From positions 30,506,001 to 30,570,000 of the forward strand of contig OZ076409.1 in NCBI GenBank assembly GCA_964187785.1: a DNA stretch of 64,000 bases. Reading direction: 5' to 3'. Source of the DNA: Amphiscolops sp. MND2022 (lineage: Eukaryota). The notes below the pieces were generated by a model. That model ran no database searches. It worked only from the letters and a program-made list of their open reading frames with translations, and was not told where the DNA came from. Shown here piece after piece: positions 3,211 to 57,173 of the stretch. Every line of letters starts with the position of its first letter. Within the stretch, counting starts at the first letter, position 1. Made by a program: the position numbers and the translations under genes.

Positions 3211-3679
3211 TTCTCATGGTGTTTGCTACATGTATTCAGGCCATTGCTGAAAGCGAACAAACGTTTCTTGGCCAACTTTTAAAACGTTAACGTTATACTT
3301 TATCGGCACTAAGTTTCTGTGTTTATACTTAAGTTAGTCTTGCCAAATTTGTTATTGCGCTGTGCGCTGCCCTTTTCGCTTTCTACAGTAGTTATACCGG
3401 TGCCGAGTCGAATCAACTTTTGTTTCGAGTGTATGACGTGTCTTAACAGACTTGCTTTAATTAGTGAAATAATTGTGGATTCATAAATTCTGTGACTAAA
3501 AATTTTTCCATTTTGGCATGGTCTCTTTCAGTCATCTGCATACCACATTGAACTGTAAAAGTGCTAAGGAGTCGCCTTCGACAATAACGCAACCCATACC
3601 AGATATTTCGTACACCAAATATAACAATTCTTGAAGAACTTTTGGGAGTCGGAAAAAAATTTCCATTGCCTTTTTTTCT

Positions 3680-4375
3680 CCCCATCTTTCAATGAAACTC
3701 AAATTTCTCAAAAGCTGTCCATACGATTTTTCTACAAATTTGCACAGCCATTCTACGCCCAAAGGTGCTCCTGTGTGCGCAATGGCATCAAAATAATATG
3801 ACTGGGATCTGAGAAATAGCCAAAATTAGCCCAAAATCGTCAAAAAAAAAACATTTTTGGACTTTTTTTCGAAATTCTCAAAACTGTCCATACTATTCGA
3901 ACGAAATGTTTTACAGTCATTCCACATTATATTAGGGTCTTATATGACTGGGATCTGAGAAGTAGCCAAAAAGAGTTCAAAAATGGCCAAAAGCTCGATT
4001 TTTGGAAATTTTAGTATTACTCAAAACTGTCCATACGAGTCGAGCGAAATAATTAGTCATTCTGCAACATATTACGGTCCTATATGTGCAATGACGTCAA
4101 AATCGTATGACTGGGATCTGAGAAACGTAGCCAGAAATAGCCAAAAAATGTCCAAAAACAGCTATTCTTTGATATTTTTTGATGTACTCAAACTTTCCAT
4201 ACGATTCGAACAATTGTTTCACAGTTAATCTACACCACATTAGGGTCCTATGTGTGCAATGGCGTCGAAATCGCAAGACTGGAATCTGAGAACAGCAAAA
4301 AAACAAATGATGACAATGAAGTACGTATTTTGTTTTTGATTATTTCAATCCGTTCCCGACATTCGGCTCTGGTTT
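3680..4375 (+). repeat. ~180-bp tandem repeat family (TTTCTCAAAACTGTCCATACGATTCGAACGAAA...GTGCAATGGCATCAAAATCGTATGACTGGGAT...AGCCAAAA)
   Basis: About 4 diverged units here. The same unit recurs at 53480-56860, 60944-61050 and 62695-62850. Confidence 0.8.
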
Positions 4376-6759: not shown

Positions 6760-8055
6760 GTAAATTGAAAGTTCAAAATATTTTGAAGCCGAGTACACAC
6801 ATTTTTGTTCGAAAATTCTGAGATCAAATTACAAAAATTTAGAAGCTATGCATTTTGCTACTGATTTCGCATCTAAGTTAGACTCAATTTTCAACCGCTT
6901 TGAAAGCAATTTTTCTTCGATTGTTCAACCCTACGATTATTTTTCAATTCAATTATAGTTATCTCAAACGATTTTGAAAAAGCAAAAAGAGTTTAAGAAG
7001 AACATATCAGACAAAAAATGAACGCATATTATCAATATTTCTGCGATAGCAAGCCTAGTATTGAAATCTGAATTATTGAACTTTTCCTCCCTTCAAAATA
7101 GGTTATAATCCACTGTAAGGACTTCGAAATGGTTTTGAAGTACTCTTTGCTTTGTGATAGTCTTCTTCTGCGCGGTTTTCAAATTAATTACTGTTTCATC
7201 TAAGTCGACATTTGGGATGGAAATCGGTTGAATTTGAGTTCTCAGTTCATTTGTTTCTGATGGCCTAAAAGGATTATCCTTCAATCTGCTTTCTTGATTT
7301 TCGGTATCAGATGCGTTTATTTCACCGTCATCGCTGTTTATGTAAATGGGCGTTTCTATTCTCGATGTGGTTTGTCCATTACCTTTTCTTCTAGGAATTG
7401 ATCGTGTTCTTCTGCTGTTATTTACTTCTCTCATGATTCTTTCTAACTTGTCGTTCATCTCTTTCCTTAGTTCTGCCATTTCTTTGTTTGTGTTATGTTA
7501 TTTTTTGTGTCCACACTTGCATTTCATTTTCATTTTGTGTAGGATCAACTAAAGCAGCTTCTCTGCCTCTAACTGAACTAACATTATCAAAGATACTAAG
7601 AGTTTCAATCATAGTCTCATTACCTTGCGATGCTTCTGCTTCTGAAGCGCTCTGAAGGTCTCTCTCAATTGAAGATGACTGTCCTCGTCTGAATTTTCTT
7701 TTTTTGTTACCTATCTCAGCTAGGTTGAAAAAATGTTTGTTGGAGAGAAGAATTTCAATTAGGTCGAAAGATGAAATGAAAAAGAGTTGAAAACAAAGTT
7801 GGGGAAGTTGTACATATCAAATCACTAAGAATAAATTGAGATTGTGATGAGAATAAACTGCGAAATTTTTTTCTCGAAGAGATAAGGAAAATAGGTCTGA
7901 TAGGTTTAGTAGTTTTTTGAGGAATTAAGTTTTATGGGGTTGTCTGACTCTCCCCAATTTATCGGGGTCTAATTCTAGCAACAAAACATTCATTTTTCAG
8001 AAAATCATTCTTACATCATTGTTACGTGGCTTCTGAAAATAGCGCCCTTTATTTT
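6760..8055 (-). repeat. 3' LTR of element A (part alignable to the 5' LTR; its true start may lie further right)
   Basis: Colinear with 20610-21880, including the MAELRKEMN.KLERIMREV ORF (7093-7479 vs 20923-21306). Confidence 0.8.
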
Positions 8056-10772: not shown

Positions 10773-13700
10773 ATGGCACCGCTAAAGTCTTCATATCCGA
10801 AAAAATATCCAGTGAATGCCCCCAAGGAGCAGCAATCTGAGGAAACTACTGTGACATGCGGTAAGCTTGATATTCTGTATTTTCCTGTTGAAACCAAGTT
10901 AAATTTTTGTTTATCAGCCGTCTGGAATTTTATTGTGAATTGGCCAGACTCACACTTTTTTCAATTTTTAAACGGAAATGTCAATTTCCTGTTGCTGACC
11001 TCAGCACAATGTATCGTATTTTGTTTCAGGTTCATCCCCAGCTTAACTGCACATTAGCCCACGTACTTCTACTCGCTCCAAGCGTGCAACCACTAGACGC
11101 ACAATTTTATTGGGACCCGCAGATAATCTCAGATTCACACTTGAAGAAGACAAACTCCCGCATGAGTTCACCCCTCAAGTTTTATTGAATGATAACTTCG
11201 ACGAGTATGTGGAAACCACCAGCTTATTTGCGGGAACCACACATGAACCACCGGGCCTCCCAGACGTCAGTCTAGTGCGTCATGTTACATCTTCTCCTCC
11301 TAGTAATGTGACTATAGATGGCAAACAGCCGTGTTATTCGTCAGCAGCAGCGGCTGATCTTTCGGAGTCAGCAAGTGAAAACATTTCAGAATGGTCGCCT
11401 TTCACCAGGTGCCTATTTAACCTAGCTCCCCGCACTAATTAACAACCAGGGCAAGAGGTTGAATGAGTAATTGGAGCATCCACCTCTATCGCGCATCCCA
11501 ATCAACAAACCAGTCCACAAAACACGAGAGAAGAGAGACAGGAACGGCTTCTCTCGGAAGCAGTTGATGAAGGGCGTGACAAGGAAGAGCGGCGACAGCA
11601 TAATTTGATATATACCACCAGCTCCAGAAGCCAACATACTCTCTAAAAGATGCCCCCAACTCTCAAGAAGTCTCGGGCTGATCAAGAAAAGGAATGCTCG
11701 CCCCCATAATCCTTCTCATCAAGTGATTCAGATTAGGACTTTTCTTCCTCTGAGGAACTCGTTGCCCCAAACGAGAAACCAATTAAGTGACTGAAACAAC
11801 GACGAGGTGACGAAGATGCCCCTCAGGGGAAAACTGCAAAGCCGATACATACATTTGCGGTGTGGATGTACCACAAGTGCCCAATACTCAAATACTTTGT
11901 GACAGCTCCCGCAGATGCAGTTCGTTATCCCCACAAGTATCGATATCGCGTATATTTAGTAGAACTCTCCCTGAAGACAAAAGGGCCCTTAGAAATCTTG
12001 GGATATTATATAACTGATGCCCACTTGGTAAAGCAACACCGCATCACGCTAAAACTCCTGGACTCCGGTTGTATGCTAAACAATGCAAAGAACTGACTGG
12101 AATGGCCCTCAAATACGCAAAAAAGAGCGCGCCAAGAGGGAATACCCAATCGCACCTAAGCTCGAATTGTAGTATTTACGTGTTGGACAACTGGAACGAT
12201 CTGATGGGGCAACAACGACAAGGAAGTTCTGTCACAACCTAACCTACTCAGGTTTGGTCCCGTTCAAGGAGGCCATTTGGATACAGTCATAGCGCTCTGC
12301 AAAACAAGAAACAAGAAACCCAAACCACTGAACCAATCTTCCAATACGACTGGCGGCCTCACCGATTTCTTGTAAGTGTAAGATTCTCCCCCGCTCTTGT
12401 TTGAACATTTTATGATGTTCAATTCTTCTTTTGGTTTCAGTGTATGTTGACACACATGTTTCGTGAATTGGACAAATGTGTGCTGCTCCTGCTCGTATCT
12501 GTATTCACACCACATTTCGTGTGGTCTGTATCACGTGTTTTCCCACAGCAGAAAAGGATTTGTGCCACTCCTAAATTCGCCGCTGATGATCTCGAGAGAG
12601 CCCTCCTTGTACTTTCAGTCCAGATCCTTGACCGTTTCGACTTTTTCAGTGTCTTGGACTTCCTCATGATGAGTGGAAGCCCATGGCTCGCGAGGCTGCC
12701 AGAATTCCAAAAGGTACCATCTTTTTAATTTCTTTATTTTGTTTAGTTAACAACTTACGAGTATGTTTGTCCAGTAGAGTCGTTCTCTTGAAGAATCACT
12801 ACTTTGAGGGGAAATCCAGCTGATTTTGCGCTGGTCTAGCAATTCTTGATTTTTTGAGAAATAACACTTCTTTGTGCTAAGTTCGATTTCGTATCTTTTG
12901 AGTTTTGTTATGTCGGTTTTTTTCTTCTCCGGAGATTTCTTGTGGCATACTGCACTGTTATTGCTCTCTTTTCCTTATTTTCGAGTACAAGACGTTCATT
13001 ATGCGTCACAAGGTTTTCAGCATAATGCGGCAAAACTGACTCTTTTGGTTCTTTCTTTTTTGTTTGAATTCTGCAATGACTCATCCTAACGCAACGTAAG
13101 AAGATACCATATTAGTTATACTGCAATAGCATTAAGTTTTGATCGGATTTCGCACGTGCTCAAATCGTTATCATCTTTGTTTCTCATCACATTCAATATT
13201 CAACACGTGACTTTTGAAGATCTATTCAGTTGTAACAGCTAAATATTTGTGTTTGTTTTAGATGGTTACCAACTTTGATTACGACCTAGAGCAAGCTGTG
13301 GCAATACTGGACCATCTGATTTCGAATTGAGATCAAGTTGTGGCTCGTTTGCAAGACAGTATACGTGTCTCGACGTATCGATTCCACAAGCAAGAGGTTT
13401 GTATTCGTAGTTTCTTTTCATTTTCTGTTTTGCTTCCATGTAGTTCATCTGTGTCTTTTGTCCAATATACTGGTATGGAACTCCTTCTGATAGTTCTAAT
13501 TTTTGTCTTACTGGTCTGACGTTTCTCTTTGTTTACAGCCTTCTGGAATGGACGACTTGATTATCGAGGACAGCGTTCTCGTCGCACGCCTCTTCACTCT
13601 TCATTACGCGCAACATCCTCAGCCAGTGTTAGTATTTGTTTTCGTAGTTGTGTTGTTCTGCTTTTTGTACTTGTCCAGTTGTCGTATGGATGGCAACTCA

Positions 13701-14995
13701 AACTTTAGATCACTTCAAGTAGTTATCTTTGCTCATCAAGCTAGCAACTTCTTTATATAAATTGTGTAGTTTTCCATATTTTCTTTTCTGTTTCAGATAA
13801 TTCAATGTTCAAGGAGGTGCGTAACGCAGCCGCCGGCGGTTTTCGACTATTTAACCAGTATTGCGTATTCTTTTTTTCTCAGTTGCAAATCATTTTCCCT
13901 TCCGCCCACTTGGACAACATTGCTATTTGGAACAGATATCTCAACTTTGACATGGATGATAGGGCTTTTCCTTAAAAGACTGTAGATAACTTTCTACAAG
14001 ACGGGACTTTTCTGAACTAATGAGTAGAAGCGAGATCTCTACGCCCAAGCGTTTTGTCAGTCAAGCTATCATCTGCTTCTACAGACACTTCATAAAGATT
14101 CTTCTAACGGACGAACTGGCAATTTTTTCTTTTGCTCGGGGATTGTCTTCATTCGACGCAGCTGTGATAAAAGATGGCAATGGAATCCATTACACTGATT
14201 CTATTCAGTTGTTGTGTGGATACTTCGTCCAGCAGAAGTGGATCGCTCCTCACATTATCGTGACTGATTACTGTTCTCTGGTCACCGAGTTCCGTTCCGA
14301 CAAGGTCAACAGTGGCAGGAAAGAGTGGATGACTTTCTTCTCCCGCTACTACGAACTACAAAGCCGAATCCCAGTGTTCCGACTCTTTCGCTTTTGTTGC
14401 CAGATTCTCTGAAGCCCCTGTAATGCTCCTCCAATGTTCATTAATTCCTTACCCAGAATCAAATCTGACATGGCTGATTTACCTCTGCCATCAGGAGCCT
14501 TCAATTTACTCTTGCTTCAGCCCATAAAGTTTGTTTATGGCGAACCACACTCTGCCCCGAATGTTATAATTGATCTATTAGACTAGGGTCCTGGATTGCT
14601 CCACAAGCGGAAATTTTCTGTTCGGCATTTATTTTTGTCTACTTATTTCCAGAAAATTTGAATTCGGTATTCTCTGGAAACTTACTGTGGAAAAGTGCTT
14701 CGGTCGCCAAAAAGATTTGGCTGTCGAGTGAGGATAGGGCCAATCTGTCTCCAAGCACGAGTTCGAGCGTGGCTAGCACCCCTAGTAAGTCTTCCTTGTG
14801 AAGCCGCCATCTACAGAAGCTAGCACTGTGGTTCGTCGCTTGTTTGACGTTCCAATGTTTCCTGTTCCAGACGCCCCCACTTCAAGTGGTAAAAAGATAA
14901 GAAGAAAAAGAAGACCTCGTCTTCCGTTAAAGACAATTACTTTCTTGGTCAGTGAACTATATTTTGTCCTAATGACAAATGCTTTCTTTTGTTAG
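10773..14995 (+). pseudogene. Element A antisense, multi-exon accessory gene (zinc finger plus hAT-transposase-like helical domain), decayed
   Basis: ATG at 10773. Intron-like GTAAGC..TTTATCAG (10861-10917) and GTAAGT..TTTCAG (12372-12440). Peptides in ORFs 11860, 12444 and 14020 align by eye with element B's minus-strand ORFs. Confidence 0.75.
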
Positions 14996-15086
14996 TATTA
15001 TCTTTTATTTACTTGGTATAATAACTGTTCTAATTGAGAATCTGCGGGAAAAGACAGCGAGTTCAGTCTTGGAAGTCTTATGTTTT

Positions 15087-18000
15087 TAATATCTGTATGA
15101 AACTGAGATACTAGGGTTTGGGTTAGGTCGTAAATTGTATTTTTCACCACGTGTATTTGTGGGTAGTTTTACTTTTCGAACCTCAACAACATCCTCTGAT
15201 AATTTTGTTACTTGATTTTCATCTGCATATTCTGGGAAATTTTCTGCATCCATATAGGCGGTAGTTTGTAAATCTTGTTGATCTTCTTTTATGTCAACTT
15301 CATTATCTTCACTGTTTATTGGTGTTTCCTTACTAGGCGCGGTAGTTTGTTCTACTGTGGTCCCCGTTTTTTGAATTTCGAGGCAGGCTAGGTGGTTTAT
15401 CGGAAGTTATTTTTGTACATCATCTTGTTCATGATCGGGGGGTTCTATCTCAAATGGGTTTGTACCAAAGTTTGTATCCCATATGTGCGCATACAGTTCG
15501 TCATGTGTCACCGTTATGTTATCGTTTTTTGCCTGTCTGTTTCTCTGACAATTTTATCTGCTCGCGGTGTAACTTTCCGTAAACGTATTTTGTGTGATAA
15601 TTGTGATTTGTTGGTCCCCAGTCTGCGTAGAATGTAATTATTTTTAGGCAAATTACTTTTTCAACATTGTAAGGCCAACCCATCTAAATTGTCGAAAGGG
15701 AATTTTGTTGATTGTGTGTCAGCTTTCGGGTTCAGTATATAGCAAAAAAAATGTTATTGACGGAGATGCTTTGGCTTTGCGGTCAAAACACGCTTTCTCT
15801 TAGAAGTATGACTGCACGATTTTCTTTATAGATTGATCATTCAAACGCGTCATTCTGCCTTGTACTTCCTCTGCAATGTCAGCTTCTTCTCGTATAACTT
15901 GTGAATTAAATTGAGTGCCCATGTCGGTTACTATTTTTGTTGGCAAATAGGAATGTTTGCACAGTATGTCCATGATAACCCTTGCAACTGCAGGGGCTGT
16001 TGATTCGGGTTATTGGATATGCAAATAAATATCTTGAAAAGATATCAATTGCTGTTTTTATGTTGTACAAACCTCCACTAGGTGGGCGATTTGGTAATGT
16101 TGTCCATTTGAAGTATATCGTGTGGACCAAGATCCCATTCAGGGCAATTGAGAGGTTTTAAGTATGTCGTATACACATTTGGCAATTTTGTACCCAACTT
16201 TTGATGTACTTTGCTAGGCATTGGTAATAACGTTTTTGTCGAGCTTCTTGGATCATCTTCGTTCTTCTTGGATGGTTTGCATTGTGTCCAAGTAATGCAG
16301 TTGGGAATTCATCTAGGAGTTGTTTTGAGAGTAGAAATTGATAATGGGAAAGTTGCCCATTATCATTGTAATATTTTCGTGCTAGTTTGTCTTGTAGAAT
16401 TTCAAGACGTGGCATATTTTGTAGATAGCGTTGATATCTGTTGCCTTCATGGAACGCTGATTCATCAAACGGTTTTCCTTCAATCTTGGCTTTCAGGTTT
16501 CGAAGGACTGGATCGTTGTTCTGTTCTAGTCGGATTTTTGCATTGTTACGGTGTCCTTCTCGGTAGTTTACTGTGCCCGCTGAGAGTATGAGGAAATATA
16601 GTTCCGTGACTTCATTTTCAAGAAGTTCATTGTGCGTTTCGGTCTGTGCTTGGTGACGAACAGCATCTTTTTCATCCCAATGGGTTTTTTCGTCAGTTTC
16701 GTCGCCGGGAGGAGGGAAATTTGTTCCTCATCCGTTATGCCTGAGGACTGTATAATAACCTCGATAGCTTTTGTTTGTTATATCACTTCTGAGGTTTAAT
16801 TCAAGTTTTACTGTTGGATTGATTTCTGTGCGTGATAAGAAATCAGCCGCTGTATTCATTGCTCCTGTAACACATGCTATGATGGTTATACAGTAATACG
16901 TAATCACACGCATTTCATAGTGCGGGCGGTATAAGTTTGGTCAGAAACAATCTCGTAACTGCTCGGTTGTCAGTGAAAACAATCACTGGAAAGGTTATAG
17001 CCCATATTAAGTGTCCAAATTCAGAAAAGACGAAAAAAATGGCTAAAAACTCTTTCGCGTAAATAAAAAATTTCAAATGTGTGGGGTTAAAAGTTTTTGA
17101 ACCAAAGTCTATTGTTGCACACGTCTTCCGTTTTGATTGTAGTTTCTGTTGAGGATCATCTTCGATCATGATTGCGTATCCTGCTGCCGTAAAAATTGCG
17201 CCACACATGAGGAATCATTTCTTGTCTTCGATTGGCTGTTTCAGTGCCATCTGGAACAACTGTAAAAGCAGTTTGTTGAGTTGTTCAAAATTTGCTGTGA
17301 GTTCATAAGAGATGTTGAATTTGTTGGTTCCTTTCAGTAGGTTGAGAAAGTTGTGAGTCCTACTGAGAGTCGTGGTTTAGAATTTTTAAAGTATTTCAGG
17401 AATCCGATGTATCTTCGGAGTTCTTTTTGGATTTTTGGAGTTTTTCTAAGGCCTTTTTCACTTTTTCAACTTGAGGAGACACTTCGTCGGGGGTTATCGT
17501 TCTGTCGAGGAACTCTACTTGTCAAAAAGACATTTTGACATATACAACTTTAGTCCTGCTTTTCTTATGCATTCAAAGACTGCTCGGATGTTGACGCACA
17601 ATTGTGTGACAGTTTCCGCTGCAATTCCGATGTCTTCGACATGTTAAGCACAATGGTCAGTTTTTATCAATGTGTCTGAATAATCCCTCATGAAACTTGA
17701 AAATGCTGATATTGATCGGTTTAGGTCTTGTGCTTTTCGTCGGTAGGCAAAAGTTCGACTAGCGAAATTAAAGGCCAGCAATTGGATTGATTGGTAGTCT
17801 GCCATTTGTAGGCAGTGATACGCTTGTGAGCAATCAAGCTTACAAAAAAGTTTCTTCCCTGCCATATGTTTAGCAGCGTCAGATAGTGTACTTTCCGGGT
17901 GGTTGTTGTTGACGTAATCTTCGGTTATTAAATTGTTGATTTTCCGTAAAATCTTAGATCTACTAACAGTCGCAATCTACCATTAGGTTTTCTTTGTGCA

Positions 18001-19565
18001 AAGATCGGACTCGCGTATTTCGAAAATGGTAAAGTGCTTATTACACCATACTTGTTAAGTAGGGCAACTTCAACAGTAAAATTTTCTTTGAGATTTATGG
18101 GGATTGGGAGACTTTGGCCGTATGCTGGTCGATCGTCGTTCGGTGTGAGGTTTACTTTAACCTCTTCATTTGTCCCAAGGTCAAACCTGTGTCTTGCAAA
18201 AATATCATGAATTTCTTTGACACTTTTTCCGACTTTTTGTTGTAGTATCACCTCAATCGGAATGATCAAGAAATTGTTTTCGCGTTTGCTCGTCATCATG
18301 TGGGTTGGGTTCTTCTTGTGCTTGTAGTTCCAATAATTCTTAGGAGATTCGTTTTTGTTTTGGTGTATAAATTGTCGGATCACCTGGTTGCTCCGCTTTG
18401 TCATTTTTGTTATTCGCTTTGAGAAGTTCGTTCAACTGTACATCTGTAACTTCAGTATAATGATGCATGATGAACGTTAGTGTTGACGGGCTAACAGGTA
18501 TCATGATCTTGAGTTGTTCGGGTTAGAATCCGAAAATCAGCTAAATGAGTATCAGTTGTTATCGAGTATGGTAGTTCTGAGAAATTGTAGATTTGGTATC
18601 CTACTGCGTTATTATTGACTCTGCTGAGTGAGGAAACCAAGAAACGTGTATCATGTACTTCGAGTTGTGCAGAGGGCGTTACAATGCCTGTTGCATCATG
18701 ACCAATTAGGTGTGGCATTCTGCTTGCAATGAGTAACGTTTCACCTGAATGTAGTGTGTATGTTGCTTCTGCAAGTAAAAAAGTTGTTGGTCGTGTTTGA
18801 ATATTATGTTCGGGTTTCATTTGCTTTGACAAGATGGGGAAATTAGGGAGATTTAGGACTTTCATCAAGATGAAGATTTCTTTGAACAGGAAATCTGTCA
18901 CTTCCAAGGTGAGGCAGACTGTTCCAATCGGTGTTTCTAACTGTGCATTAGTTACCATTATTTGAAAGTTTGGAGCTGGACTTGTGTCAGAGATAGCTTC
19001 TTTTGCTAATAATTTGATTTTGTTAAGATCTTGTTCTGATATGGCGCTGGCGAGAGCTCCAGTATCAACTGAGCCGTCAAGTGTAAGTTTTTCAAAATTC
19101 ATTGGAAATTTATATATATGACGCTTACATTTTGAAGTGAGGCTCGTTGATTGTAGAAGGACAGATGTCTCCGTTTTTTTATTGATTGTAAGATTTTGTA
19201 TTTCATCATCTATGGGGAGTAGTTTTTGTGTTGATGCAGGTTCGTCTGGTATTCCGGGTGTGTTTTGTGATTGTGGATGTTAGATGTTGGTTTTTGAAAG
19301 AGCTTATGATAAGTTTTGTAGTGATTGTTTCAGTTCATTTTCATACAGAAAACTGAGGTTTTCTTCTTGAGGTGTATTGTCGGGACTTTCTGTTGTGTAT
19401 TTTCAGGTGCGTTTTTGTATAATCCTCTGACTCATTGTGTTGGATGTCGTGGGTCTGTAAGTCGATATGTTGTGTGAATGTCTCAAGTTTTGTAGGTTGA
19501 AGGGTTGGATGTTGCCAGTCATCCTTCTCCTTGGGTTTTGTGAGGCGTGGCTGAATTAGTTTAAA
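15087..19565 (-). pseudogene. pol: Element A pol (protease, RT, RNase H, integrase), multiply disrupted
   Basis: VDTGALASAISE (PR); SPIFAQRKPNGRLRLLVDLR, KLDCSQAYHCLQMAD and LAFNFASRTFAYRR (RT); IYAKEFLAI, VFTDNRAV and NTAADFLSR (RH); HNANHP..CQMC and DIFSRYLFAYP (IN); C-terminal YNLRPNPNP. Confidence 0.92.
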
Positions 19566-21545
19566 TCCTTCGATGATGAATGTTGAGATCTGGGTGCTTT
19601 TGGATTTGTAAGTTTTTTGGAATTTTTTCAACTTTCAAGGAGTTTTTTCTGTGTTTCAGTGAGTGTCCACTTGGGAGGCCAACTTCCATGTTTGCTCCGA
19701 AGTAGCATGTTGGTTCTTCGTGTCCTGGTGCGTTACAATGCGTAAATCGGGCGGCATTCGTGTCTTCGTCCATCTTGCGGCGTTTGGCCTATTCCAGGCA
19801 ATCGCTCGCTTTGTGCCCCGCATCCCCGTGTATTAATGGGCACTGTTTTTGGTGTATGTTGTTCTTTTTTAGGTGTTGAATTTTTTGGCTGAGTTGTTTT
19901 GTCTTCCGGTTTTTTGGTTATTGTCATTTGCGTTTCGACTCGAGTTTCCTCGAATTCGAGTCCGTTTAATTCCATCTCTCGTTCGAGATGTCGGTTTTTT
20001 TTCAAAAATTCCGTTTTCCAGGTAGGCTTGATGTATAGATCATCTCAAATGTGGAGGCGCTTTTGCGTTCAAAAGACTCTCTATCTTTCGTGATGCTATG
20101 TCACCAGAAGCGTTTTCTGCGCTTTCTTGTGATTCTTCAAGGAAATCCGGTAGTTTTGTTGTTCCGGGTCGAACACCAAGCCATGTACTCTATGTTTCGC
20201 TACTTTCGGGCTCGACATATTTCCAACGGAACACTACCAAAATGACTTCGAGGGTAGTTGCCGGCGTTCGTTGGATGTTTTTAAAGGTTTTCAAAGCCAA
20301 ACCTCTCAGATAAGCATAAAAATGTTTGATTTTCATTTCCTTTGTTCGATTGGGTTGCATTTCAAGTGTTGTATGAAAAAGATCTTCAAAATTTTCAAAT
20401 TTTTCAATCTTTTCCATTTTCCCGTTAAGTGTGAGTGTGTTTTTAGGGTGGGGGTTACGATTTGCAAGTTTCTCAATAGCTAACGCTATTTGGTTAGCTA
20501 GGTCTTGAGGTGGATTTATTGGTTCAGTCATTAGATATGTTTTTTGTGAAACTCTTGAGTTGTTTGAGTCTTGACGGTGAAATGGTTTGCTAGCTCCTGT
20601 CACCACTGTGAAACTGAAAGTTCAAAGACACAATTTTGTTCGAAAATTCTGAGATCAAATTACAAAAACTTAGAAGCTACGCATTTTGCTACTGATTTAG
20701 CATCTAAGTTACACTCAATATTCGACAGCTTTGAAAACATTTTTTCTTCGAATGTTCAACCCTACGAATTTTTTTCAATAATAGTTATCTCAAACTATTT
20801 TGAAGAAGCAAAAAGATTTTGAGAAGAACTTATCAAAAAAAAAGTTGAACGCATATTATCAAAAATTCGGCGATAGCAAAACTAATATTGAAATCTGAAT
20901 TTTTGAACTTCTTTTCCTCCCTTCATAATAGGTTATCATCCACTGTAAAGACTTTGAAAAAGTTTTGAAGTGTTATTTGCGTTGTGATAGTCCTCCTCTG
21001 CGCGGTTTTTAATTTAAATGTATCATCTAAGTCGACATTTTGGATGGAAATCGGTTGAATTTGAGTTCTCAGTTCATTTGTTTCTGATGGCCTAAAAGGA
21101 TTATCCTGCAATCTGTTTTCTTGATTTTTGGTATCAGATGCGTTTATATCACCGTCTTCGCTGTTTATGTAATAGGGCGTTTCTATTCTCGATGTGGTTT
21201 GTCCATTATCTTTTCTACTAGGAAATGATTGTGTTTTTCTGCTGTCTTTTACTTCTCTCATGATTCTTTCTAACTTCTCATTCATCTCTTTCCTTAGTTC
21301 TGCCATTTTTTGTTTGTGTTATCTGGTACTTTTTGTGTCCACACTTGCTTTTCATTTTCATTGTGTGTAGGATCAAGTAAAACAGCTTCTCTGCCCTCAA
21401 CTGAACTACATTTATCAAAGTTACTGAGCATTTCAATCATAGTCCTAAAACCTTGCGATGCCTCTGCTTCTGGAGCGCTTACGTCTCTCTCAAGTGAGGG
21501 TGATTGTCCCCGTCTTGATCTTCTATTTCTTTTGTTACCTATCTC
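19556..21545 (-). pseudogene. gag: Element A gag (N-terminal part inside the LTR, split by a 376-bp segment)
   Basis: LTR-borne GNKRNRRSRRGQSP..MAELRKEMNEKLER..EEDYH; internal VTGASKP..FENFEDLFHTTLEMQP; CNAPGHEEPTCYFGAN knuckle remnant; ends at TTTAAAC-TAA. Confidence 0.8.
20594..20605 (-). promoter_or_regulatory. Primer binding site of element A (TGGTGACAGGAG, tRNA-Leu-like)
   Basis: Lies 1 nt after ...TTTCACA and begins with TGG. Resembles the tRNA-Leu PBS TGGTGTCAGGAG. Confidence 0.65.
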
Positions 21546-21880
21546 AGCTAGGTTGAAAGAATGTTTGTTGGAGAGAAGAATTTCAATTAGGTCGAAAGAT
21601 GAAATGAAAAAGAGTTGAAAACAAAGTTGGGGAAGTTGTACATATCAAATCACTAAGAATAAATTGAGATTGTGATGTGAATAAACTGCGAAATGTTATT
21701 CTCGAAGAGATAAGGAAAATAGGTCTGATCGGTTTAGTATTTTTTTGAGGAATTAAGTTTTATGGGGTTGTCTGACTCTCTGCAAATTATCGGGGTCTTT
21801 TTTGGGAACATGACATTCATTTTTCAGAGAATCATTTTTACATCATAATTACGTGGCTTCTAAAAAACGCCCTCTTTTAT
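20607..21880 (-). repeat. 5' LTR of element A (truncated at ~21880)
   Basis: Similarity to 6760-8055 stops at ~21880, where element C pol begins abruptly. Confidence 0.8.
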
Positions 21881-21883
21881 ATA

Positions 21884-24800
21884 TGGTTTCCCACACCTGA
21901 AACGTGTGATAATCCTGAACAATTGACACCAATACCGCGTAAAATTCATGAACAACTTCACCATTTCCATCAACTCGAACAAAAAAACCCTAAACAAAAT
22001 GAAGCGGATCGGAACGAATTTCTATCTAAATTCGATTGGAAGAACATTCGGTTTTGACATCAGATGAAATCAGCGAGCTCGAAAACCTTCTCATCGAGTT
22101 TGAAGATAATTTTGCCAAACACAGATTCGACGTTGGTTATAACACTGAAAAGAAAAATAAATTGACGCCCGAACACTCGAATGCAGTTTATATGCAAAAT
22201 CCGCCAACGCCAATACACCTCCGAGACGAAATGATGGTTGAATTGGCTTTTTTGCAATACTACGGCATTTTAACAACACTAACAAATTCGAAGTACAGTA
22301 GCCCAATTTTCGCTCAGCGAAAGCCGTCGGGAAAATTGCGAAGTTTGCATGACCTCAGAAGAAAAAATCATTTGCTGCGACATGATTATGCCAACCACAA
22401 TTTTCCTATTTCCAATATGACGGACGCTGTTAACCATTTTGCGGGAAAGAAATTGTACATAAAATTACATTGTTCGCAAGCGTACCACTGCGTTCAAATG
22501 GCAGACCCACTCTCGGTACAGTTGCTTGCATTCAATTTCGCATCCAGGACATAGGCATACAAACTTTTGGCACAAGGTTCGAGTAAATCCGTTACGGGAT
22601 TTAGTGCTTTTGTACAAAAACACTTGGATCAATGTCTTACGGCTAACCTCTGCACCCAATTCATGGACGATATTGGGAGTGGAAAATTTTCGCTGGTATC
22701 CGAAGTTTCGGACTCAAGGTTTCACCAGAAAAATGTCAATTTGGAATGTGGCAAATTTCTTTCTTAGGCAATACGATCACATCTGAGGGAATTACGCCCG
22801 AAACGAAGAAAATAGAAAAGTTTCTAGACAAAAACAAAATACCACAGACGGTGAAACAAGTCGAAAGACTCTTCGGCTTCACACTATTTTTTTCGACATT
22901 TCATACCAAAGTTGAACGAAAAGCTGCTACCCGTTTACAAATTGTTGCAAAAGGATGTCGATTTCAGAGTTCAAGACGATCATATCGAGAATTTTAAGCA
23001 AATCAAAACTGATCTTTCAAAAGCAACGACAACAACATTGCGTTTGGCAAAACCAAATCAACAGTAGGTTATTCTTTGCGATGCTAGCTACCATTGTAGT
23101 GGTTTTGAACACATGATAGAAGACTACATTGACATGACGGCAGAATCAAAAACAAAAACGTACGCACCAGTTTCTTTCGGATCAAAAGCCTTTAATGAAT
23201 CACAATTGGAAATGTCTGTTTATTGCAGGAATTTCTTGCCTTGTAATTAGCTCTCGATGCTTTCTCGCATTTCATTTGGGGCTGTGAGAAACCAGGATTG
23301 GTGCTCACTGACAACAAAAACCTGACATCTTTCTTCGAAACGAAAGAAATACGTCCTTCTCTATGGAACTTCTTAGATCGAGTCTTGGCATACAACATTA
23401 CCTTGGCGCACGTCCCAGGTCGTGCAAATGCAGCCGCAGACTTTCTTTCACGCATGGAAACAGAACCAGGAGCAACGCTACAGCTCGGACCAACGGATTC
23501 ATTACCAGTCCGAGAAATAAAAGTTTCGATGACAGCCAAAACACCAGATATCTCAATAAACGAGCTTCAATTCAACAACACAACCTTAGAGAAAAACTCA
23601 ACCCATGCGGATTATGAGAAAATTTTGAACAAAATTCCAGGAATAAACGAAAAATTCCCTGAGCTTACGAATTATATTCGTGAAAAAGAAAGCATGTGCG
23701 ACTGGGAATACACAAGCTTAACAAGAGCAGAAAACAACGCACTCCACGAACCTGATCCTCTAAATGACTTTGAGATCTCTGCACATGCCACAACCTTAAA
23801 CCTGAAAGCAGAACAATCGAAAGACCCTACACTGCGCAAAGTTCGTGAATGGCTAGAAGAAAATTTGGACATCGACATAACCTACGAAACCCAAGAAATC
23901 AAGAAGTATGCAAAACACCGCAGTCGCCTGGTACTCGAAAATGGTATCATCTACAGAAAATTTTTCAACGACGTTGGAGTTGTCTCGCATTTACAATACT
24001 GTGTTCCAAAGCATCTTCGATCCTAAATTTTAAACAGACTACACAATTCCCCAACTAGTGGTCATCTGGGCATCAATAAAACAGTATACGAAATTCGAAA
24101 ACGTTTCTTTTTTCCAAGCTTCACGGAATATTTGCTCAACTATGTGAAAACTGCTCAACTTGTTTGCAAACGAAAAATATTCAGCAGAAAAGGTTGCAAC
24201 CACCTCTAGATTCGTTAGCATGTAATCAAAACTTCCCCGGAGATATGATGCAGATTGATCTCGTTGGTCAATTCAATGCACCGGTATACAAATACGCACT
24301 AACAGGAATCGACGTCTTTTCGAAATACCTGTTCGCGGTGCCGCTGTCTAGCATCAGCGCAGAGAATGTAGCAAAAGCGCTAGTTTCCATATTTCTGAAA
24401 CACAGTTACACACCTAAAACTATTCTAGCAGATTTAGGTACAGGTTTCACATCCAAGCTTTTGCACGAGTTGACAAACATGCTGGAAATTAAATTAAATC
24501 TTGCATCTTTAAAACACGCACAAACTGTTGGTGTAGTTGAGAGAGCACATAGTGCATTCAAACGGATTTTGAAGACTAACTCAACCAGTGCATGGTCTAA
24601 CTGGCATAAGTTTGTGGATATTGCAACGTTTGTACACAACACATCTTACCATGTCCCAATCGGTACCACGCCAAGTTCAATATTTCATGGCCGAGAACCC
24701 TTGAAACCCATTGACTTGAGATTCAGTAAACATGTAACCTCGTCTCAACCATCGAGCGACTTTGTGAATGACTTGCAAGACATTCTTGTTCAGCAGTTTT

Positions 24801-25658
24801 GCGAAACAAAATCTCGAACTCATATCATCGTTACCGGAACTACTATGATCGAAAAGCAGAAGCTCAACCGTTGAAAAAGCACGAATACTGCTTGCTTTTG
24901 AACCCGTTGCTCACTGATCAGTCTAGCACTATGTCCAAGACAGTGCAGCATGGCTGCATCTCTACCGAGTTGAGCAGGTTCTCACGAAATTGAATTATAC
25001 CATTCGAAAGGTAGGAACGCCGTTCACTCAATGCGTTCAAAGACTCCGTATCAGGCCAATAAAACCACAATATACCGCTGAAGATTTGCCGAGACTTGAT
25101 CCTTCCGAATTCAAACCTGATCCATCCTTAAGTCAATTTCGGAGTGAACCAGGTCTATTCGACAATGAATTGCAACAGCTGTTGAATGAACATCACACAA
25201 ACGTTGAAACACTCGAATTGCAGGACAGTGAACCACAAAATGAAGTGACAACCACCCTATTATTTCCAATAGTACAACCAGCATTGGCGCTCACTAGAAG
25301 AGAACCAAACGCTCCAAGAGAAAACACAACAGACTTTAATTTGGAACGTCTCTTTGAGCAACCTGATGTGCAAACAGAAACACAGCGACCTAGACGTTCT
25401 ACACTACTACAGGCGCGAATTCATCCTCGCGTTCCGTCACCAACGGCTACACCGACATCACACAAGGTGTCTTGGTTCTCTGATGATGACGAAATGGCGC
25501 GAACTTTAGGTGATCAAGCTAGAGCTGCTCGAAGAGCACTTTTGTCTTCACAATTGGAAGCTAATAGAAAAACTTTAGAAGCGGTAGAATCAATGCAACA
25601 GAACACAGATCCTCAACCGGTAACGAGATCCAAATCACAAAAAAACCACAAGAACTAA
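21884..25658 (+). pseudogene. pol: Element C pol (RT, RNase H, integrase)
   Basis: WFPTPE; SPIFAQRKPSGKLR; CSQAYHCVQMAD; QFMDDIG; CDASY; LTDNKNL; NAAADFLSR; MQIDLVG..GIDVFSKYLF..LADLGTGF..VERAH. Stops and frameshifts throughout. Confidence 0.92.
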
Positions 25659-27400
25659 CAGTACCTTTCAACGTGAGGCAAATAAATCCAATTATTTTCT
25701 TAGATCAAACAACTATGATCGACAATCAAAAAACGCAAACGATTAAAACGCTATCGAGCAAACGCGGGAAAGGCATTGCAGCTACAGTAAAAAACTTTTG
25801 CATACTGAAAAACTGAAAATGAGAAAACAACCTTTTTCGGTAAAGACAAGTGTTTGACAACAAACTGCCCTTGAACATACGCCTCTTGAACAACACAAAC
25901 GTTTCTGGATCTACAAAACCTCGAGCGCACGATTCAAGCCTCCAACACAAATAGCACGAGAATCCATAAATTTGTGGGAAAGAAACATTTTCACAATGAA
26001 CAATTTCCTTGTGGTTGCAAAAACTGCGCTCGAGAAATCTTGGAGACCCTTATGTTCAAGTCATTGCTGGCTTCCTTTCTGCCACCGAGCGCCTTTCGAA
26101 TGAGAACTAACTTTTTTCCTTCGTGGGTTCCCTTCACGCTGTTTTTCACCAAATACCATCACAAAAACAACTAGACTATATAATGCGGAATCATTCTTGC
26201 CAAAACCTGGAAGCTGATTGCAGAAGCTTGAAGGCGAGAATACTACAGCACCGCATACTTTATAATTGCTAGCAAAACTTACTTTTTGAAACCTCCATTG
26301 AACATCATGGGAAGTAACTTTTGGATGGAATTCATTAGTAATTCCGTCCAGGACGTTTCTCAACCCATCAAATGTTAAGAGCCTAACAAATATTGTCACT
26401 TGACTAAGCACCCCAATTACAGGGACAAAATCACAATCAAAAATTCAAAAAAATATACACTTATTAATTTTGAACGGAAAAAAGACGAGCATGTTATGAA
26501 AAACAAGACAATGTTTTCAAAAAAGACGGACAATCACAAATACATCCTCGCCAAAACGTCAGATGGTTTCTCAGTAGGCCATATTGCGTCGCCAAAACCG
26601 TATTGTAAAATTTCTTCCAAAGAACTAACGTTTTTCGATGTAAAAGTTTTTGCCTCAATGAGAAATAATTGACCAACCGATAAAATACCAAATCATGATA
26701 ATTTTAACCAATACGTCAATTCTACCCTCGACACATCCACGTGATCAGATCAAAGTACTTATCACTGGACTGTCTGTTGCCATCGAGCGATTTCGTTACA
26801 AGAGCTAACTTTTTTCGGGTCGAACGCTACACGTCCAATACCAATCAAACATTTAGTCAACAACTCTTCCAAACTGTTAAAACAAAACACCTCCCCCCTG
26901 GCAAGAGCCCTGACAGTTCGGTATACTGACACCGAGGATTTCAGCAACCAACGAGATGCAAAAAAAAAGAAACAAAACAAGAGTTTTTTTCAGTTGGCCA
27001 CACGAACAATGTTTACAAACAAAGAAAAGGGAAGCTGAATACATTGTAACAGAGAACTAACTTTTACCAAAAAAAACTGGAACTACATTGAAAAAAAAAT
27101 AGAAAAATCCGAGGAAGCCAAAAACAAGAGATCGTACACTTTTCTACGCGTTGGGTTCGGTTGATGGTGTAGAAGCTTTTGTCGATTGTAGAATTTTGAT
27201 ATTTTTCTTCAGAAACAGAGAAAAAACGAGTTGTGTTGATGATTTTCTTCTAGATTTAAATTACAGCAAATCGATATTCAACTGAAGTTATATTCAACTT
27301 CTCACAAACAAGTCTCTCGGTTGGTGTGTCAGTCTTTTTTCCTTCTTGCAATCTATAATTTTGGCACTTCCTGTTTCCTGTTTGTTCGAAGGAATTTTTG
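21884..27400 (+). mobile_element. Gypsy element C, 5'-truncated (pol remnant, 3' region, probable PPT and LTR start)
   Basis: pol motifs span 21884-25658. Purine tract AAAGAAAAGGGAAGC at 27021-27035 is followed by TG. Right boundary approximate. Confidence 0.75.
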
Positions 27401-27916
27401 ATCAATATTTATAAAATGCCGCACCAAATATGGTGAAACATGATTATTATGAGAGTTTGAATATTTGATGATTGGTAATAAATTGCCTATTTTGCTGGTC
27501 AAGTTCTATAATCTCTTGGGTGATGAACTTTCCTTGTTGGGTAAATTCCATCAACGATGGCCTTTTTCAGGTCAATGGTAACATGGATATGTTACACTGT
27601 CAATAAAGCAAAATTACAAAACTGGGTCGGTGAGGCGTCTGAATTTGCAAAAACGTGCTCCTAGAACAGGATTTAGTAGTAAATACAAGTTGTTGAAAGT
27701 GATATTAGCATGTTACAAAACTGTTCGCGAAACAGTGTTTTCAAAAATTGAATGACATTTGATCAAGCATGGTTTCCGCCTAGTTTTTCAGTCCAACATT
27801 ACGAGACACATTCCGGTAGCGAACTAGCAGGATCTGGCTCGTTCGATATTTGTTCAATCAGAGCGCGAATGTTTTCTGGACAATTTACACTTGTCAAACC
27901 TTTCGTGCATATACAA

Positions 27917-27993
27917 GTCGTTACACTAGTACGAATGTCATTGGTGAGACGTTACACTAGTACGAATGTCATTGCTAAGTCGTTACACTAGTG
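27917..27993. repeat. Tandem repeat, ~2.5 x ~31 bp (CGTTACACTAGTACGAATGTCATTG)
   Basis: GTTACACTAGT occurs three times at ~31-bp spacing. Confidence 0.8.
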
Positions 27994-27999
27994 AAATAT

Positions 28000-30900
28000 A
28001 TACCTTGAAATATATTTGAGCCTTAGGATCAATAGGACAGTACTTTTGAGCCAAAAGATGTTATAGCTGCTGGAACTACCTCAACCGGGTGTTTAGCTTT
28101 TTCAAACTTACCAATATCAGCTGTATGTTTCATTAAATAATCATCACATTCTGTTGAACGTTTGTTCAGCGTATTACGTGCAGACGAACCCCACGGGTTT
28201 TGTTCTTCGTCTAATTGCGCTTCCGGGCCTGGGATCGGGGGCCTGTAATTCCAGGTTGCTGCGTTTTTATCGCGTTCCGATAAACTGGCTTCCGAGGGTC
28301 GGTCGACGACAAAAACAGGAATTCAGATGAAGAGCTGTATTCAGAAGTGGTGTCCATATTAATTTGTTCATAAATTTTACAAATCTGAGGATTGCCTTTT
28401 TGAGTTAAAAGTATTGGTAACGGCTCGTTGCTCTTTGCGCGTTGCTAGTTAGGCTACCTAGGCTGAAACAAGAAGCCTGTTTCTTTCACAGTAGCAACGA
28501 TGTCTTCTAAAAATATGGAGTGTTTCAGAATCCTGTTAGGCGTCGCAAAGTTGATCAAACGTTTCGAAACAAGAATGGTTCGTCATTATCAGCAAAAACT
28601 TTGCACGTGAAATTGCGCGTTCGAAAGGTTGCAAAACTACATTTTGTGCTACATCTACTGACGCTTTTAACGTTTTGTTACTCACCTGCGCGTGCGCATG
28701 GTCTCGAAGTGGTTTGGAGGATGCCCTAACGACCACCTCCAATGCGGTTAGGTTAACTAGAACTTGATAGGCTTGTAGGAAGTTTCTACCCAATAGGAAG
28801 ACTTTGACACCCATTGCATCTCCGACTACTACGAAGTTGGTTTCCAGCTGATAATCACCCAATTGGAATTTGGTGTTTCCTGAGGTTTCTCTAGGTTTTC
28901 TACAGGCAGCGTATATATCTACACCATAAGGTTGAAGGAGCACACCAGTGTAAACGATCAGTCGTTGTAGGCTGAAAATGTCAGAATAGAAACGCCGGAG
29001 CCAGTGTTTGTCAGACTTCTCAAGAGAAAAGGTGCGGCGTTGGGGATAGTGACCGACAGCACGATCATCTATTCGAGCTTCGCCATTTGAATCATGTTCG
29101 TTGATGTTATAACAACGCAGTTCTTGAGATCCTAGGTATATGCCAGGAAAGAAGGCGTCCGTAATTATTGTAGTGTCAAATCACATGTCGACTCCGTCCA
29201 CAATCACGTAACTGGAACAGGGAAACTGACACGATGTGTTGAATGACACCTTTCACTTGCCATTCATCTGGTTGCGGTAACGTCAATTGTCGGCACTGAG
29301 GATTGCTGGAGATTTCGTCAATCAAGGATTCTATCGTTAGGTCTGGACAATTCCCCCTTTCTGCCACCAATAGCAGTCAACATCAAAGTTCCAAAACCGA
29401 AAGATCGATCATTGCCCTTGCGTTTTAGATCTTAGTCGCTTTGGCATGCACTCGTTCAAGAAAACGTTTTATCAGGAGTAACGTTTTTGGGTGCCCTTGC
29501 AAACATTTTGCCGTGCTCTTGTTTGGTCCCTAACAAATAGTGGTGCCAATTCTTTACACATCGCTTCGCAAACCGCTTCTGTTTATCTAAGTTGTTCTGG
29601 CGTTATTGCTTCTTTTCCGTTGATCAAAAGTGGCGCTAGGCTATTACCTCCCGTTGATTTGATAGATTTATCTGATGCGTCCAGTGTACTTGCTTCTTTT
29701 TGTCTCGTTTTGCTAGCACAGGGGTTGCCCCTGGGCAAGTTGTCATTCGCAGTTTAGAATTCCGCAGCAGTTTCTCGCAAGATGGTGTTTGCGGATTGCA
29801 ATGTGCTAGTCATTTCTGTCGTGGCGTCAGCATACGTGGGATTTCGTAGGTCTGAAATTCCCATGCTAGAGGTTTCGATTGTTTTTGGATCGACTCCTGT
29901 ATCTCTTTTACAAGATATTACTGATGGTGTATAAATCTTGGTGATGGAAGAAAAGTGTACATTTGAAGAGGAGCTTTGTTTTTACTTCACGGGAGATTGT
30001 GTCGATACTGACGGTACCATTGGTGTGTTTGATTTTTGCTTTGACTTGAGAGTTATAGTTTTGGAAGCTTTTGTTAACGAGACCATGGTATCTTTCAAAA
30101 AATCCTTGATAGTATTGTCCACTGGTTCGGAAGTGGGTTGCTCCGTCTGCAACATCGCACTCATCGTTTGGATCTGTGACTCTTTAGCATATTTGTATCT
30201 GCGTTTCCATATTAAGCTTTCGCTGCCTCAGAAAGTCAGTCAGTTTTACTATTCGATAACGCATGGCATCCATGTGTGCTGCTTGGGCCTCTTGACATTG
30301 CATGTGACGTTCAGTTGACATTCGCAGCAATTCGTTTTGGACAGTTTCTATCTCTTGAGTGACGGCCTAGGGGTCACGCTCACATTCGGTTTTCTTTTCT
30401 GATAAACGGGCGGTAGCCTGTCTTGCTTCTATTTGTGCTTCAAGCAGTGCCTTGCCAGCAATAGCGGCTTCATGTACTGCCCTGTATGCCTGTATGCTGA
30501 GGAGCGGCCCGATATCGCCTTGATGCAGGTGCAGTTTGACGTGACGCACAATGCGACCCAGTTGTGGCCGTTTGGGCCAGTAAGTCCGGAGCCCGCGCGT
30601 GCCTGCCCGTTCCAGTTGCTTTGGAAGCAGTGGCTTCCCGCAAGCGTGTTCAGGCGTAATTCATGCCTCCCACGTAGACCATCTGTTGCAGATCGTGTGC
30701 TGTGTCATAGCTTCACATGCTGGTTGCATCGGATTTTGTAATCTTTGAGCATCCTAATCCTAATTTTTCATCTCTGGGTTTGTTGGAATTAGGCTATGGA
30801 CTAAAATCATCTGCTTTCGAAGGAGTTTAGTTTCGAGACGCCAATTGGACGCGTGTGTTTGGGTATCTGATTCATCAGAGGATCCTCTATTAACTCCCGT

Positions 30901-39632: not shown

Positions 39633-39700
39633 AATCGCCGCACCTACGATTTGGGGAAAAAGTAGACGCGAGGGCGTATACGGTAGAGGACCCCCCAAAC
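39623..39700 (+). promoter_or_regulatory. Predicted -1 ribosomal frameshift signal (A AAA AAC plus stem/pseudoknot)
   Basis: The heptamer at 39623-39629 lies directly before the gag stop. The -1 frame is open into ORF 39776. Imperfect stem CGCACCTAC/GTAGACGCG, whose loop TTTGGGG is complementary to CCCCAAA at ~39693. Confidence 0.75.
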
Positions 39701-49037: not shown

Positions 49038-49723
49038 ATGGACGGCTACTCGCTTGTAATTGATATTTCTTCTGATGAAGAATACACCCGAACGAGCACG
49101 CCGCTAAAATCTCTGCCCCTCAATATGGTCGGCTCTTTAAGTGATTCTTCTACAGAAGTTTTTCGAGGTAGTGACGCCGAATTAGAATCGTCGTGCGGAT
49201 CAAAAGGCTCTCCTAGAATCCTAGGACTAACACCCAAAAAGAAGAAAAAATTTACGAGGGTCTCTTTCAAACTGCCCCGGTCAATAACGGATCAGAAAGC
49301 GATTTTTATGAGGAGGCAGATACCCCCAAGAGAGCTGAGCCATTGAAGCCGTGCCGGAAAATAAACGTCCAACCGGAACGTGAAATGCCGAGAGACAGCC
49401 CGAATGACCTAGATGAGCTGTCCAAACCCCCCGAGATCTCCCGTGAAGAACAGGAACACTTTGAGAGAATGGCCCTCGAGCTTGAAGAGGAAGAAAGGCA
49501 AATTACCTATATGACTGCGGGAAGAGGACGTGGCCCCCACCAGATACGAAATTACATTAGCCGCCCCCCAGTGGTTATAAAGAAAGAAATCCCCCATTGC
49601 CATGGCCTTCCGGTGTCTCTAGCTTCAAGAGGGGCCCTGTCAGGGCCTGCTCCCGGCCGAGGTTGCAGTTTCTGCTACGTGATGGGCAGAGGAAGAGGGC
49701 GCAGGTATTGCAAATACCATTAA
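49038..49723 (+). pseudogene. Element B sense extra ORF, running through the PPT into the 3' LTR
   Basis: ORFs 49038-49346 and 49343-49723 (one frameshift): MDGYSLVIDISSDEE..PKKKKK..GRGRG..CSFCYVMGRGRGRRYCKYH*. The stop lies 86 nt inside the LTR. Confidence 0.65.
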
Positions 49724-57137: not shown

Positions 57138-57173
57138 AATTGTCTATGCGCTGTATTCCCTCTTCTGACGCCC

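Follow-up and report, generated by a model that had tools for sequence, protein, structure and literature searches.

A hypervariable antisense gene, probably derived from a hAT transposase, in two Gypsy retrotransposon families of Amphiscolops sp.

Two Gypsy elements with a spliced antisense gene

The window analysed here, a stretch of 64,000 nucleotides (nt) of contig OZ076409.1 (positions 30,506,001 to 30,570,000) from the 1.07 Gb eukaryotic genome assembly of Amphiscolops sp. MND2022, contains two Gypsy elements of about 15 kb each, element A on the minus strand and element B on the plus strand. Both encode an additional gene, referred to here as the accessory gene, at positions 10773-14995 (+) of the window in element A and 44618-48401 (-) in element B. 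The two genes are homologous, spliced and oriented antisense to their elements, and each is located between pol and the 3′ long terminal repeat (LTR).

The paired LTRs, the target-site duplication and the domain order identify both elements as Ty3/Gypsy LTR retrotransposons. Element B is bounded by a 5′ LTR (36360-38613, +) and a 3′ LTR (49638-51832, +) that are about 94.5% identical, have TG...CA ends and are flanked by a 5-bp target-site duplication, AGAAC, at the left edge of the former and after the latter, which is also preceded by a purine tract. Its gag-pol region (38460-44121, +) is found in pieces, with Pfam matches to gag-like, aspartic protease, weak dUTPase-like, reverse transcriptase (RT) and integrase segments; the dUTPase-like match (Herpes_ORF11, E 0.079) lies between protease and RT at 40533-41771 (+). 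For element A only the aligned LTR cores are given, as their exact ends are not fixed: the 5′ LTR (20628-21873, -) is 89.5% identical to the 3′ LTR (6797-8048, -), and a TGGTGA motif resembling a primer-binding site follows the 5′ LTR on the element strand. A 130-codon open frame is present inside both of these LTRs (7096-7497 and 20926-21318, -), the first of which had no Pfam match. The pol region of element A (15050-19600, -) is decayed into protease-like, RT and integrase pieces, including Pfam Integrase_H2C2 at 16161-16727, and has approximately 75% DNA identity to sampled A-family copies by blastn. The order protease-RT-RNase H-integrase is given by Pfam in element B and is identical in copies of both families fetched from the genome. 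As the sequence-only reading of this stretch had stated, the LTRs of A and B share no visible similarity (no blastn match), whereas intact relatives of the two families are 71-73% identical in RT-RNase H (66% in one damaged copy) and 51-54% in integrase.

Genome searches with the last-exon open reading frame (ORF) of the accessory gene returned at least 258 matches for A (132 of 5939 candidates scored) and at least 150 for B (150 of 1406 candidates scored), many of them in open frames near 400 codons. Sixty loci of 10 kb, 30 selected with A and 30 with B, were hand-picked to span the identity range and are numbered here with the prefix L. An integrase is encoded on the opposite strand just downstream of the accessory gene in 59 of these 60 long loci and in 79 of 80 short, partly overlapping loci, confirming the common position and antisense orientation proposed earlier; the sole exception among the long loci, L118, has unrelated DNA after the gene.

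The accessory gene is multi-exon, a correction to the sequence-only reading. When 26 of the 30 loci of each family were aligned at the DNA level, leaving out L063, L065, L070, L089, L103, L105, L111 and L118 (some rearranged, some simply not included), third-position variation fell in blocks separated by T-rich, gapped stretches. With the window copies included, GT/AG boundaries are present at six sites in all 27 B sequences and at eight sites in 25 to 27 of the 27 A sequences. Three intron positions coincide between the families and A carries one extra, such that the B exon E3 (621 nt) corresponds to the A exons E3 and E4 (486 and 135 nt), while E5 is 82 nt in both.

In the window both copies are broken. 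The A gene begins with a probable first coding exon (10773-10860, +), assigned tentatively from an ATG followed by a GTAAGC donor that is matched in 95% of aligned A copies. This is followed by a long, low-complexity N-terminal part leading into a C2H2 zinc-finger region (11031-12371, +), which is disrupted by stops, a frame change and decayed ligand residues, and by E3, encoding an RNase H-like core (12441-12713, +), of which 273 nt are present compared with 486 nt in intact copies. The A-specific intron of about 550 nt precedes E4 (13262-13396, +; 135 nt, one stop), and E5 (13539-13627, +), 82 nt in intact copies, is disturbed in frame. The last exon, E6 (13797-14995, +), also broken, encodes a helical insertion domain, a C-terminal hAT-like region and a basic tail. 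The B gene, read on the minus strand, begins with a 5′ part of short acidic or low-complexity exons that are partly resolved (47500-48401), followed by a zinc-finger exon with a CxxC...H...H pattern and two stops (46830-47410), a broken E3 encoding the RNase H-like core and the start of the helical domain (46075-46704; 621 nt in intact copies), an E5 of 82 nt with length and phase as in A (45912-45993), and an E6 with a basic tail, stops and an internal in-frame shortening (44618-45774).

An antisense gene of a retrotransposon keeps its introns, as the sense genomic RNA does not splice them. In L096 and L100, which belong to one A subfamily, the last intron is precisely gone at oriented position 3794/3795; this exact loss is consistent with genuine splicing and subsequent recombination with a spliced copy. 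Such a precise intron loss inside a retrotransposon is a rare event in itself. A block within a 5′ intron (48163-48270 in B, 10885-11033 in A) is 73-78% identical between versions of the gene whose synonymous sites are saturated, and is possibly a cis-element or an RNA signal; on the element strand the A block has a predicted fold of -19.6 compared with -4.3 ± 2.3 for column shuffles, a weak null.

Homology, purifying selection and cassette exchange

The proposal that the A and B genes are related was originally made from five motif pairs and two basic tails matched by eye, and all ten internal motifs and both tails are present on the strands given for them. The two decayed window copies by themselves are not convincingly similar: tblastx of 10773-14995 (+) against 44618-48401 (-), suggested as a check, found nothing below E 0.18, and a local alignment of the last-exon pieces scored 49, a score reached by 5 of 1000 shuffles. 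Homology is instead established through the other genomic copies. The B last exon matches 26 of the 30 A-selected loci (best E 1.9e-15), a profile of 12 intact A-family copies matches window B at E 5e-13 in the last exon and 1.4e-5 in the zinc-finger exon, and a profile of 10 B-family copies matches window A at E 2.7e-6. Alignment of the A-type (n=12) and B-type (n=10) profiles by HHalign, with all core exons intact, gave a probability of 99.9 and 668 colinear columns with 19% identity (E 3.6e-33), so that the other check suggested, a profile alignment, bears the proposal out. The colinearity of the motifs survives in part; pairs 4 and 5 (FARGLSSF/ITKGLCSF and LQSRIPVF/FRARPEVC) share columns, but pairs 1 to 3 are out of register, the true partners being QQKRICATP with B GRRFV..Q, ARLPEFQK with B EDK...R and LDHLISN with B LTDLIELW. 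The homology also starts earlier than noted, at the zinc-finger exon, which had been overlooked.

The accessory gene is held under purifying selection. A codon model gave omega values of 0.016-0.095 in nine accessory exon sets and 0.058-0.19 for pol, values that are approximate as dS is near saturation; pairwise NG86 ratios of nonsynonymous to synonymous change (dN/dS) left too few unsaturated pairs, hence the use of the codon model. The nine exon sets showed no sign of positive selection or excess amino-acid change under this model. A neutral passenger is excluded because omega is below 0.1 and the splice sites are kept.

The gene follows pol at the deep splits and was therefore acquired once. 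Integrase and last-exon distances among 72 loci with both markers are correlated (Mantel r 0.97, reached in 0 of 2000 permutations), a correlation driven by the deep splits; window A was left out of this comparison for its short integrase match. The A and B families, as well as A1, A2, B1 and B2, are clades in both the integrase and the accessory tree, with a support of only 0.49 for B1 in the latter. Together with dN/dS values of 0.02-0.10 and the three common introns, these splits agree with the earlier description of an old, selected module of this lineage rather than a chance insertion.

Within families, however, the trees that agree at depth are strongly incongruent. Among 52 loci with a long pol ORF and an intact last exon, 20 were compared in approximately unbiased (AU) tests in which pol and accessory trees reject each other (p-AU ≤6e-4), the test trees being fully resolved with weak nodes included. 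Incongruence of this kind had been named in advance as refuting the proposal, as a sign of independent insertions; because the position and introns are common, it is instead attributed to swapping of cassettes at one fixed site.

Individual loci show the accessory gene to be a hypervariable cassette that is exchanged as a block between similar flanks. Loci L072, L078 and L084 have pol bins 93-99% identical and cassettes 53-68% identical; L067 has its cassette in common with L069 and its pol in common with L081. There are elements whose pol is 95-98% identical and whose LTRs are nearly so, yet whose cassette versions reach only about 60% identity, and among the 97 pairs within families with a pol identity of 93% or more, 64 have last exons less than 70% identical. 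Across 26, 18 and 7 loci there are 13, 7 and 3 cassette versions respectively; as the loci were chosen for diversity, these pair and version counts should not be read as population frequencies. Three families each show this excess depth of the cassette, with similar flanks on both sides of a differing middle, and the switch is sharp, lying no more than a few hundred bases from the pol end. Four-fold sites differ by 0.66-0.75 between versions compared with 0.03-0.47 in pol, such that synonymous change between versions is saturated. The LTR, compared in ten B loci, goes with pol and not with the cassette (LTR identity 97-98% for L072/L078, 94% for L078/L084), and the idea of a cassette that travels with, and recognises, its LTR is rejected on this ground.

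These patterns can be read in ways that require no specificity of the versions toward their own elements. The protein may perform one general job in the replication cycle, such as nuclear import, integration targeting or RNA handling, with all versions equivalent; the versions would then be old lineage diversity, preserved by the inability of divergent cassettes to recombine internally, with recombination and sweeps homogenising pol and the LTRs. The strong purifying selection without visible positive selection, the zinc finger almost unchanged between versions and the basic clusters that could serve as nuclear signals all suit this account, but the recurrence of cassette depth in three families between similar flanks would demand sweeps on both flanks each time, and we regard it as rather unlikely. 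Another account has the protein directed at a host factor, such as one involved in silencing or chromatin, and the versions kept by host variation or by escape of the doubly transcribed region from small RNAs. Transcription of the region in both senses, if the gene is expressed, and the saturated synonymous sites count in favour of this account; pressure from small RNAs should also affect pol, which is homogeneous, and excess amino-acid change is not seen. We consider it distinctly improbable.

The gene is not confined to the sampled loci. A last-exon profile identified 868 clusters at 50% identity among 1.84 billion public proteins, and the ten matched clusters that were checked derive mostly from European Nucleotide Archive (ENA) assemblies. 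Of three clusters tested against this genome, P0011 matches at 100% and the two others reach at best 30% and 41%; because of these two, other species probably carry the accessory gene.

Resemblance to hAT transposases and a possible role

A relationship to hAT transposases was suspected from the zinc finger and the spacing of motifs, before any structure prediction. Within the finger, C32 and H52 are invariant and C35 and H58 are at least 90% conserved across 31 sequences, with no match to a Pfam finger family. The model of E3 (116 sequences, pLDDT 81) has the RNase H-like order of strands 1-2-3, helix, strand, and in Foldseek its top match is the Hermes transposase (E 1.4e-3, prob 0.99), which accounts for seven of the top ten rows; in VIA, 171 residues are aligned with Hermes (model 6-207 to Hermes 156-356), compared with at most 97 in the other rows listed, and Hermes is the single row to cover the model from end to end. 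The model of E5 and E6 (41 sequences, pLDDT 68) ranks Hermes first of 48,161 chains in VIA, with Z 6.7, a root-mean-square deviation (rmsd) of 11.6 and 209 aligned residues over Hermes 265-609. For a distant homologue of the protein, the nearest clusters in a language-model atlas are hAT dimerisation and FAM200/GTF2IRD2-like proteins (0.88-0.91). As to a C-terminal hAT dimerisation region (PF05699), these atlas neighbours carry the domain and the E5 and E6 model has Hermes as its first-ranked chain, but the last-exon proteins gave no Pfam match to it. A hAT origin is likely because these modest structure and atlas results agree jointly and in the right domain order.

Several observations weigh against a hAT origin. 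The structural matches are individually modest (Foldseek E above 1e-3; Z of 6.7 and 4.8, rmsd near 10-12): Hermes is only rank 18 by Z for E3 in VIA (4.8, rmsd 9.9), Foldseek returned no match at E 0.001 for the E5 and E6 model, the recognition score of the distant homologue in the atlas is low (1721), and an atlas query with E3 gave nothing useful. At the sequence level, Pfam had nothing above cut-off, hAT included, in 24 exon ORFs and 99 last-exon proteins; four profiles found no match in PDB sequence searches; and comparison of profiles with the Ac-type hAT ORFs of this genome (30 PF05699 loci), by hidden Markov model searches and HHalign, was likewise negative. None of the longer full-length homologues sought was scored, which is weak evidence, and a DUF4371 search of the genome for another hAT type, itself uninformative, gave no match, so a free donor transposon was not found.

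The catalytic residues appear to be lost. The Hermes triad is D180, D248 and E572 (PMC2533014). In the columns inferred to correspond to such a DDE triad, the first aspartate is D in 0 of 98 sequences (E in 53), an acidic residue (D or E) occupies the second position in none of 116, and the final glutamate is present in 3 of 90; these columns were placed by motif and secondary structure against the hAT ORFs of this genome and not by superposition, which also weakens the case. In the B2 family, which lies outside this alignment, the first of these sites is Val and the second Glu. In P0108, a very distant public homologue, the third inferred column retains Glu; this protein may stand nearer to the transposase that served as donor. 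A CxxH motif after the second aspartate is a feature of hAT transposases and is visible in the hAT ORFs of this genome; columns 104-115 of the E3 alignment show no conservation of it. No terminal inverted repeat at the cassette edges is common to the four loci checked, a single 18-nt pair being found in L084 only. The accessory protein is thus most likely a catalytically dead hAT transposase, derived from but no longer an active one, because the catalytic columns are lost and no terminal inverted repeats are common to the loci.

The remaining possibility concerning identity is that the gene does not derive from hAT, or is a passenger, either the remnant of a nested transposon or a transposase that is still active. 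The missing sequence-level hAT match and the modest structural scores speak for it. Both independent models and the atlas nevertheless indicate hAT in the right order, omega lies below 0.1 with splice sites kept, and the edges of all four loci lack a common terminal inverted repeat while the catalytic columns are lost; we consider it very improbable.

With a dead hAT transposase as the preferred identity, the following course of events may be proposed. A hAT DNA-transposase gene would have inserted in reverse orientation between the pol and 3′ LTR of an ancestral element of this Gypsy lineage, a placement in which its introns would not be spliced from the genomic RNA and would survive reverse transcription, as the conservation of splice sites suggests. 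The DDE residues would then have been lost, while the zinc finger, the fold and the basic tails were kept under purifying selection. Exchange of the cassette would proceed by recombination in the common flanks, probably through template switching by RT, at the pol end on one side and near the polypurine tract and LTR on the other. The protein, which contains basic clusters that could be nuclear signals, may act as a nuclear factor binding DNA or chromatin and promoting or protecting transcription of elements of the same version, and rare versions would be favoured such that many deep versions persist. A version-specific nuclear factor acting on its own element would explain deep versions on near-identical backbones. 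Precedents for such a role are the sequence-specific anti-silencing proteins encoded by transposable elements (VANC; described in PMC5735166) and dead transposases that act as transcription regulators, such as TnpA in the account of bioRxiv 10.64898/2026.08.24.746577.

Other data do not sit easily with version-specific recognition. Within a family the zinc finger hardly changes from version to version, which makes a lock-and-key model less convincing. Intronic arrays of 10-18 copies of a short motif occur in the long E3-E4 intron of seven A2 loci (L112-L119), where the motif differs by one base between cassette versions, but no version-specific motif arrays were found in A1 or B loci. CpG decay is weak (transitions 0.7-2 times those at other C/G sites; observed/expected CpG 0.79-1.06), leaving little sign of methylation, and a plant-type demethylation mechanism is therefore unlikely. 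Taken as a whole, the chain of dead hAT origin, retained introns, cassette exchange and a version-specific, self-promoting nuclear factor is plausible but falls somewhat short of an even chance.

The same origin and swapping would also be compatible with a protein of opposite effect, a self-repressor or exclusion factor that controls copy number, in which rare versions escape the repression exerted by residents. The exchangeable immunity module of temperate phages offers an analogy. Such a factor would account just as well for the many deep versions found on near-identical backbones, and a dead DNA-binding transposase would suit a repressor; a pure repressor should often be lost, yet an integrase adjoins the gene in 59 of the 60 loci selected for the accessory gene, and many copies retain open exons. 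We judge this alternative unlikely.

A broader suggestion, put forward tentatively and as slightly less secure than the chain itself, is that this lineage domesticated the enzyme of a DNA transposon as its own regulator, which frequency-dependent selection maintains as a hypervariable specificity cassette open to exchange. If true, it would be the retrotransposon equivalent of phage immunity modules, and dozens of types would coexist within a single genome. The case would also offer an origin for antisense extra genes: co-option of a class II transposase, by a class I element instead of the host. The many versions on near-identical backbones constitute a natural experiment in which version-specific binding, silencing and copy success are directly comparable. 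The family is large, to judge by the genome matches and public clusters given above, and such genes, being spliced, antisense and without a Pfam family match, escape standard domain scans.

Other repeats in the window and comparison with known systems

The remaining repeats of the window include a third, decayed Gypsy pol (22030-25655, +) with an RT about 45% identical to those of both A and B families. Neither this element nor its downstream region (25600-30400) contains a detectable homologue of the accessory gene; the downstream region has a 127-codon antisense ORF with five genome matches and an apparent nested gag-protease fragment on the minus strand near 28500-30300. A compact, unrelated Gypsy element (57126-60764, +) encodes gag-pol in a single open frame of 1213 codons, with an RT about 25% identical to those of A and B, and a second integrase fragment lies beyond it (61378-62490). 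A dispersed repeat family of about 170 bp with 72-81% identity, unrelated to the accessory gene, is found at 3670-4292 and 53448-56863.

Antisense additional ORFs between pol and the 3′ LTR (aORF-3R) are described in maize Grande (gene23), rice RIRE2 and Retand (TRP28) in the texts of PMC7264820 and PMC11963269, and brtn of the fungal element Boty is a further antisense extra ORF (PMC8365987). The A/B gene has this layout, as an antisense coding gene conserved across copies, with a transcript predicted from splice-site conservation and intron loss. It is alike in position, orientation and retention in most copies, but its protein is about three times longer, has several conserved introns and a hAT-like fold, and is swapped as a hypervariable cassette. 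No match to TRP28 (PF04195) was found by Pfam in the 24 ORFs or the 99 last-exon proteins, and the gene is not of the Retand TRP28 type. As presented in PMC7264820 and PMC11963269, the plant ORFs are of unknown origin and function and without similarity to other transposons.

Other systems share individual features. The hAT transposases, including Hermes and FAM200/GTF2IRD2-like proteins, have a zinc finger, RNase H-like core, helical insertion and C-terminal region in the order predicted for the A/B protein; the A/B protein differs in its lost DDE residues, missing CxxH, lack of common terminal inverted repeats and of a sequence match, and its residence in a retrotransposon. VANC of VANDAL and TnpA of Spm are likewise element-encoded accessory proteins that diverge between related families, and TnpA is reported to be transposase-derived in a paper that does not use the word retrotransposon (bioRxiv 10.64898/2026.08.24.746577). 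Those proteins belong to plant DNA transposons and act on DNA methylation, whereas the A/B gene belongs to an LTR retrotransposon with weak CpG decay and its binding is putative. In bdelloid rotifers, non-plant Gypsy-like LTR retrotransposons also carry an extra gene (ORF3) after pol and, like element B with its weak match, a dUTPase-like segment between protease and RT (PMC5408684); the ORF3 types listed there comprise env, GDSL esterase, DEDDy exonuclease and others, and the main text of that paper uses neither the word transposase nor the word intron. The main texts of the open literature searched, including PMC13547354, PMC6431247 and PMC5408684, contain no description of a hAT- or transposase-derived gene in LTR elements or of cassette swapping. 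Within that literature, the layout of the A/B gene is already known from plants and fungi, and the probable transposase origin and the cassette swapping are the new part.

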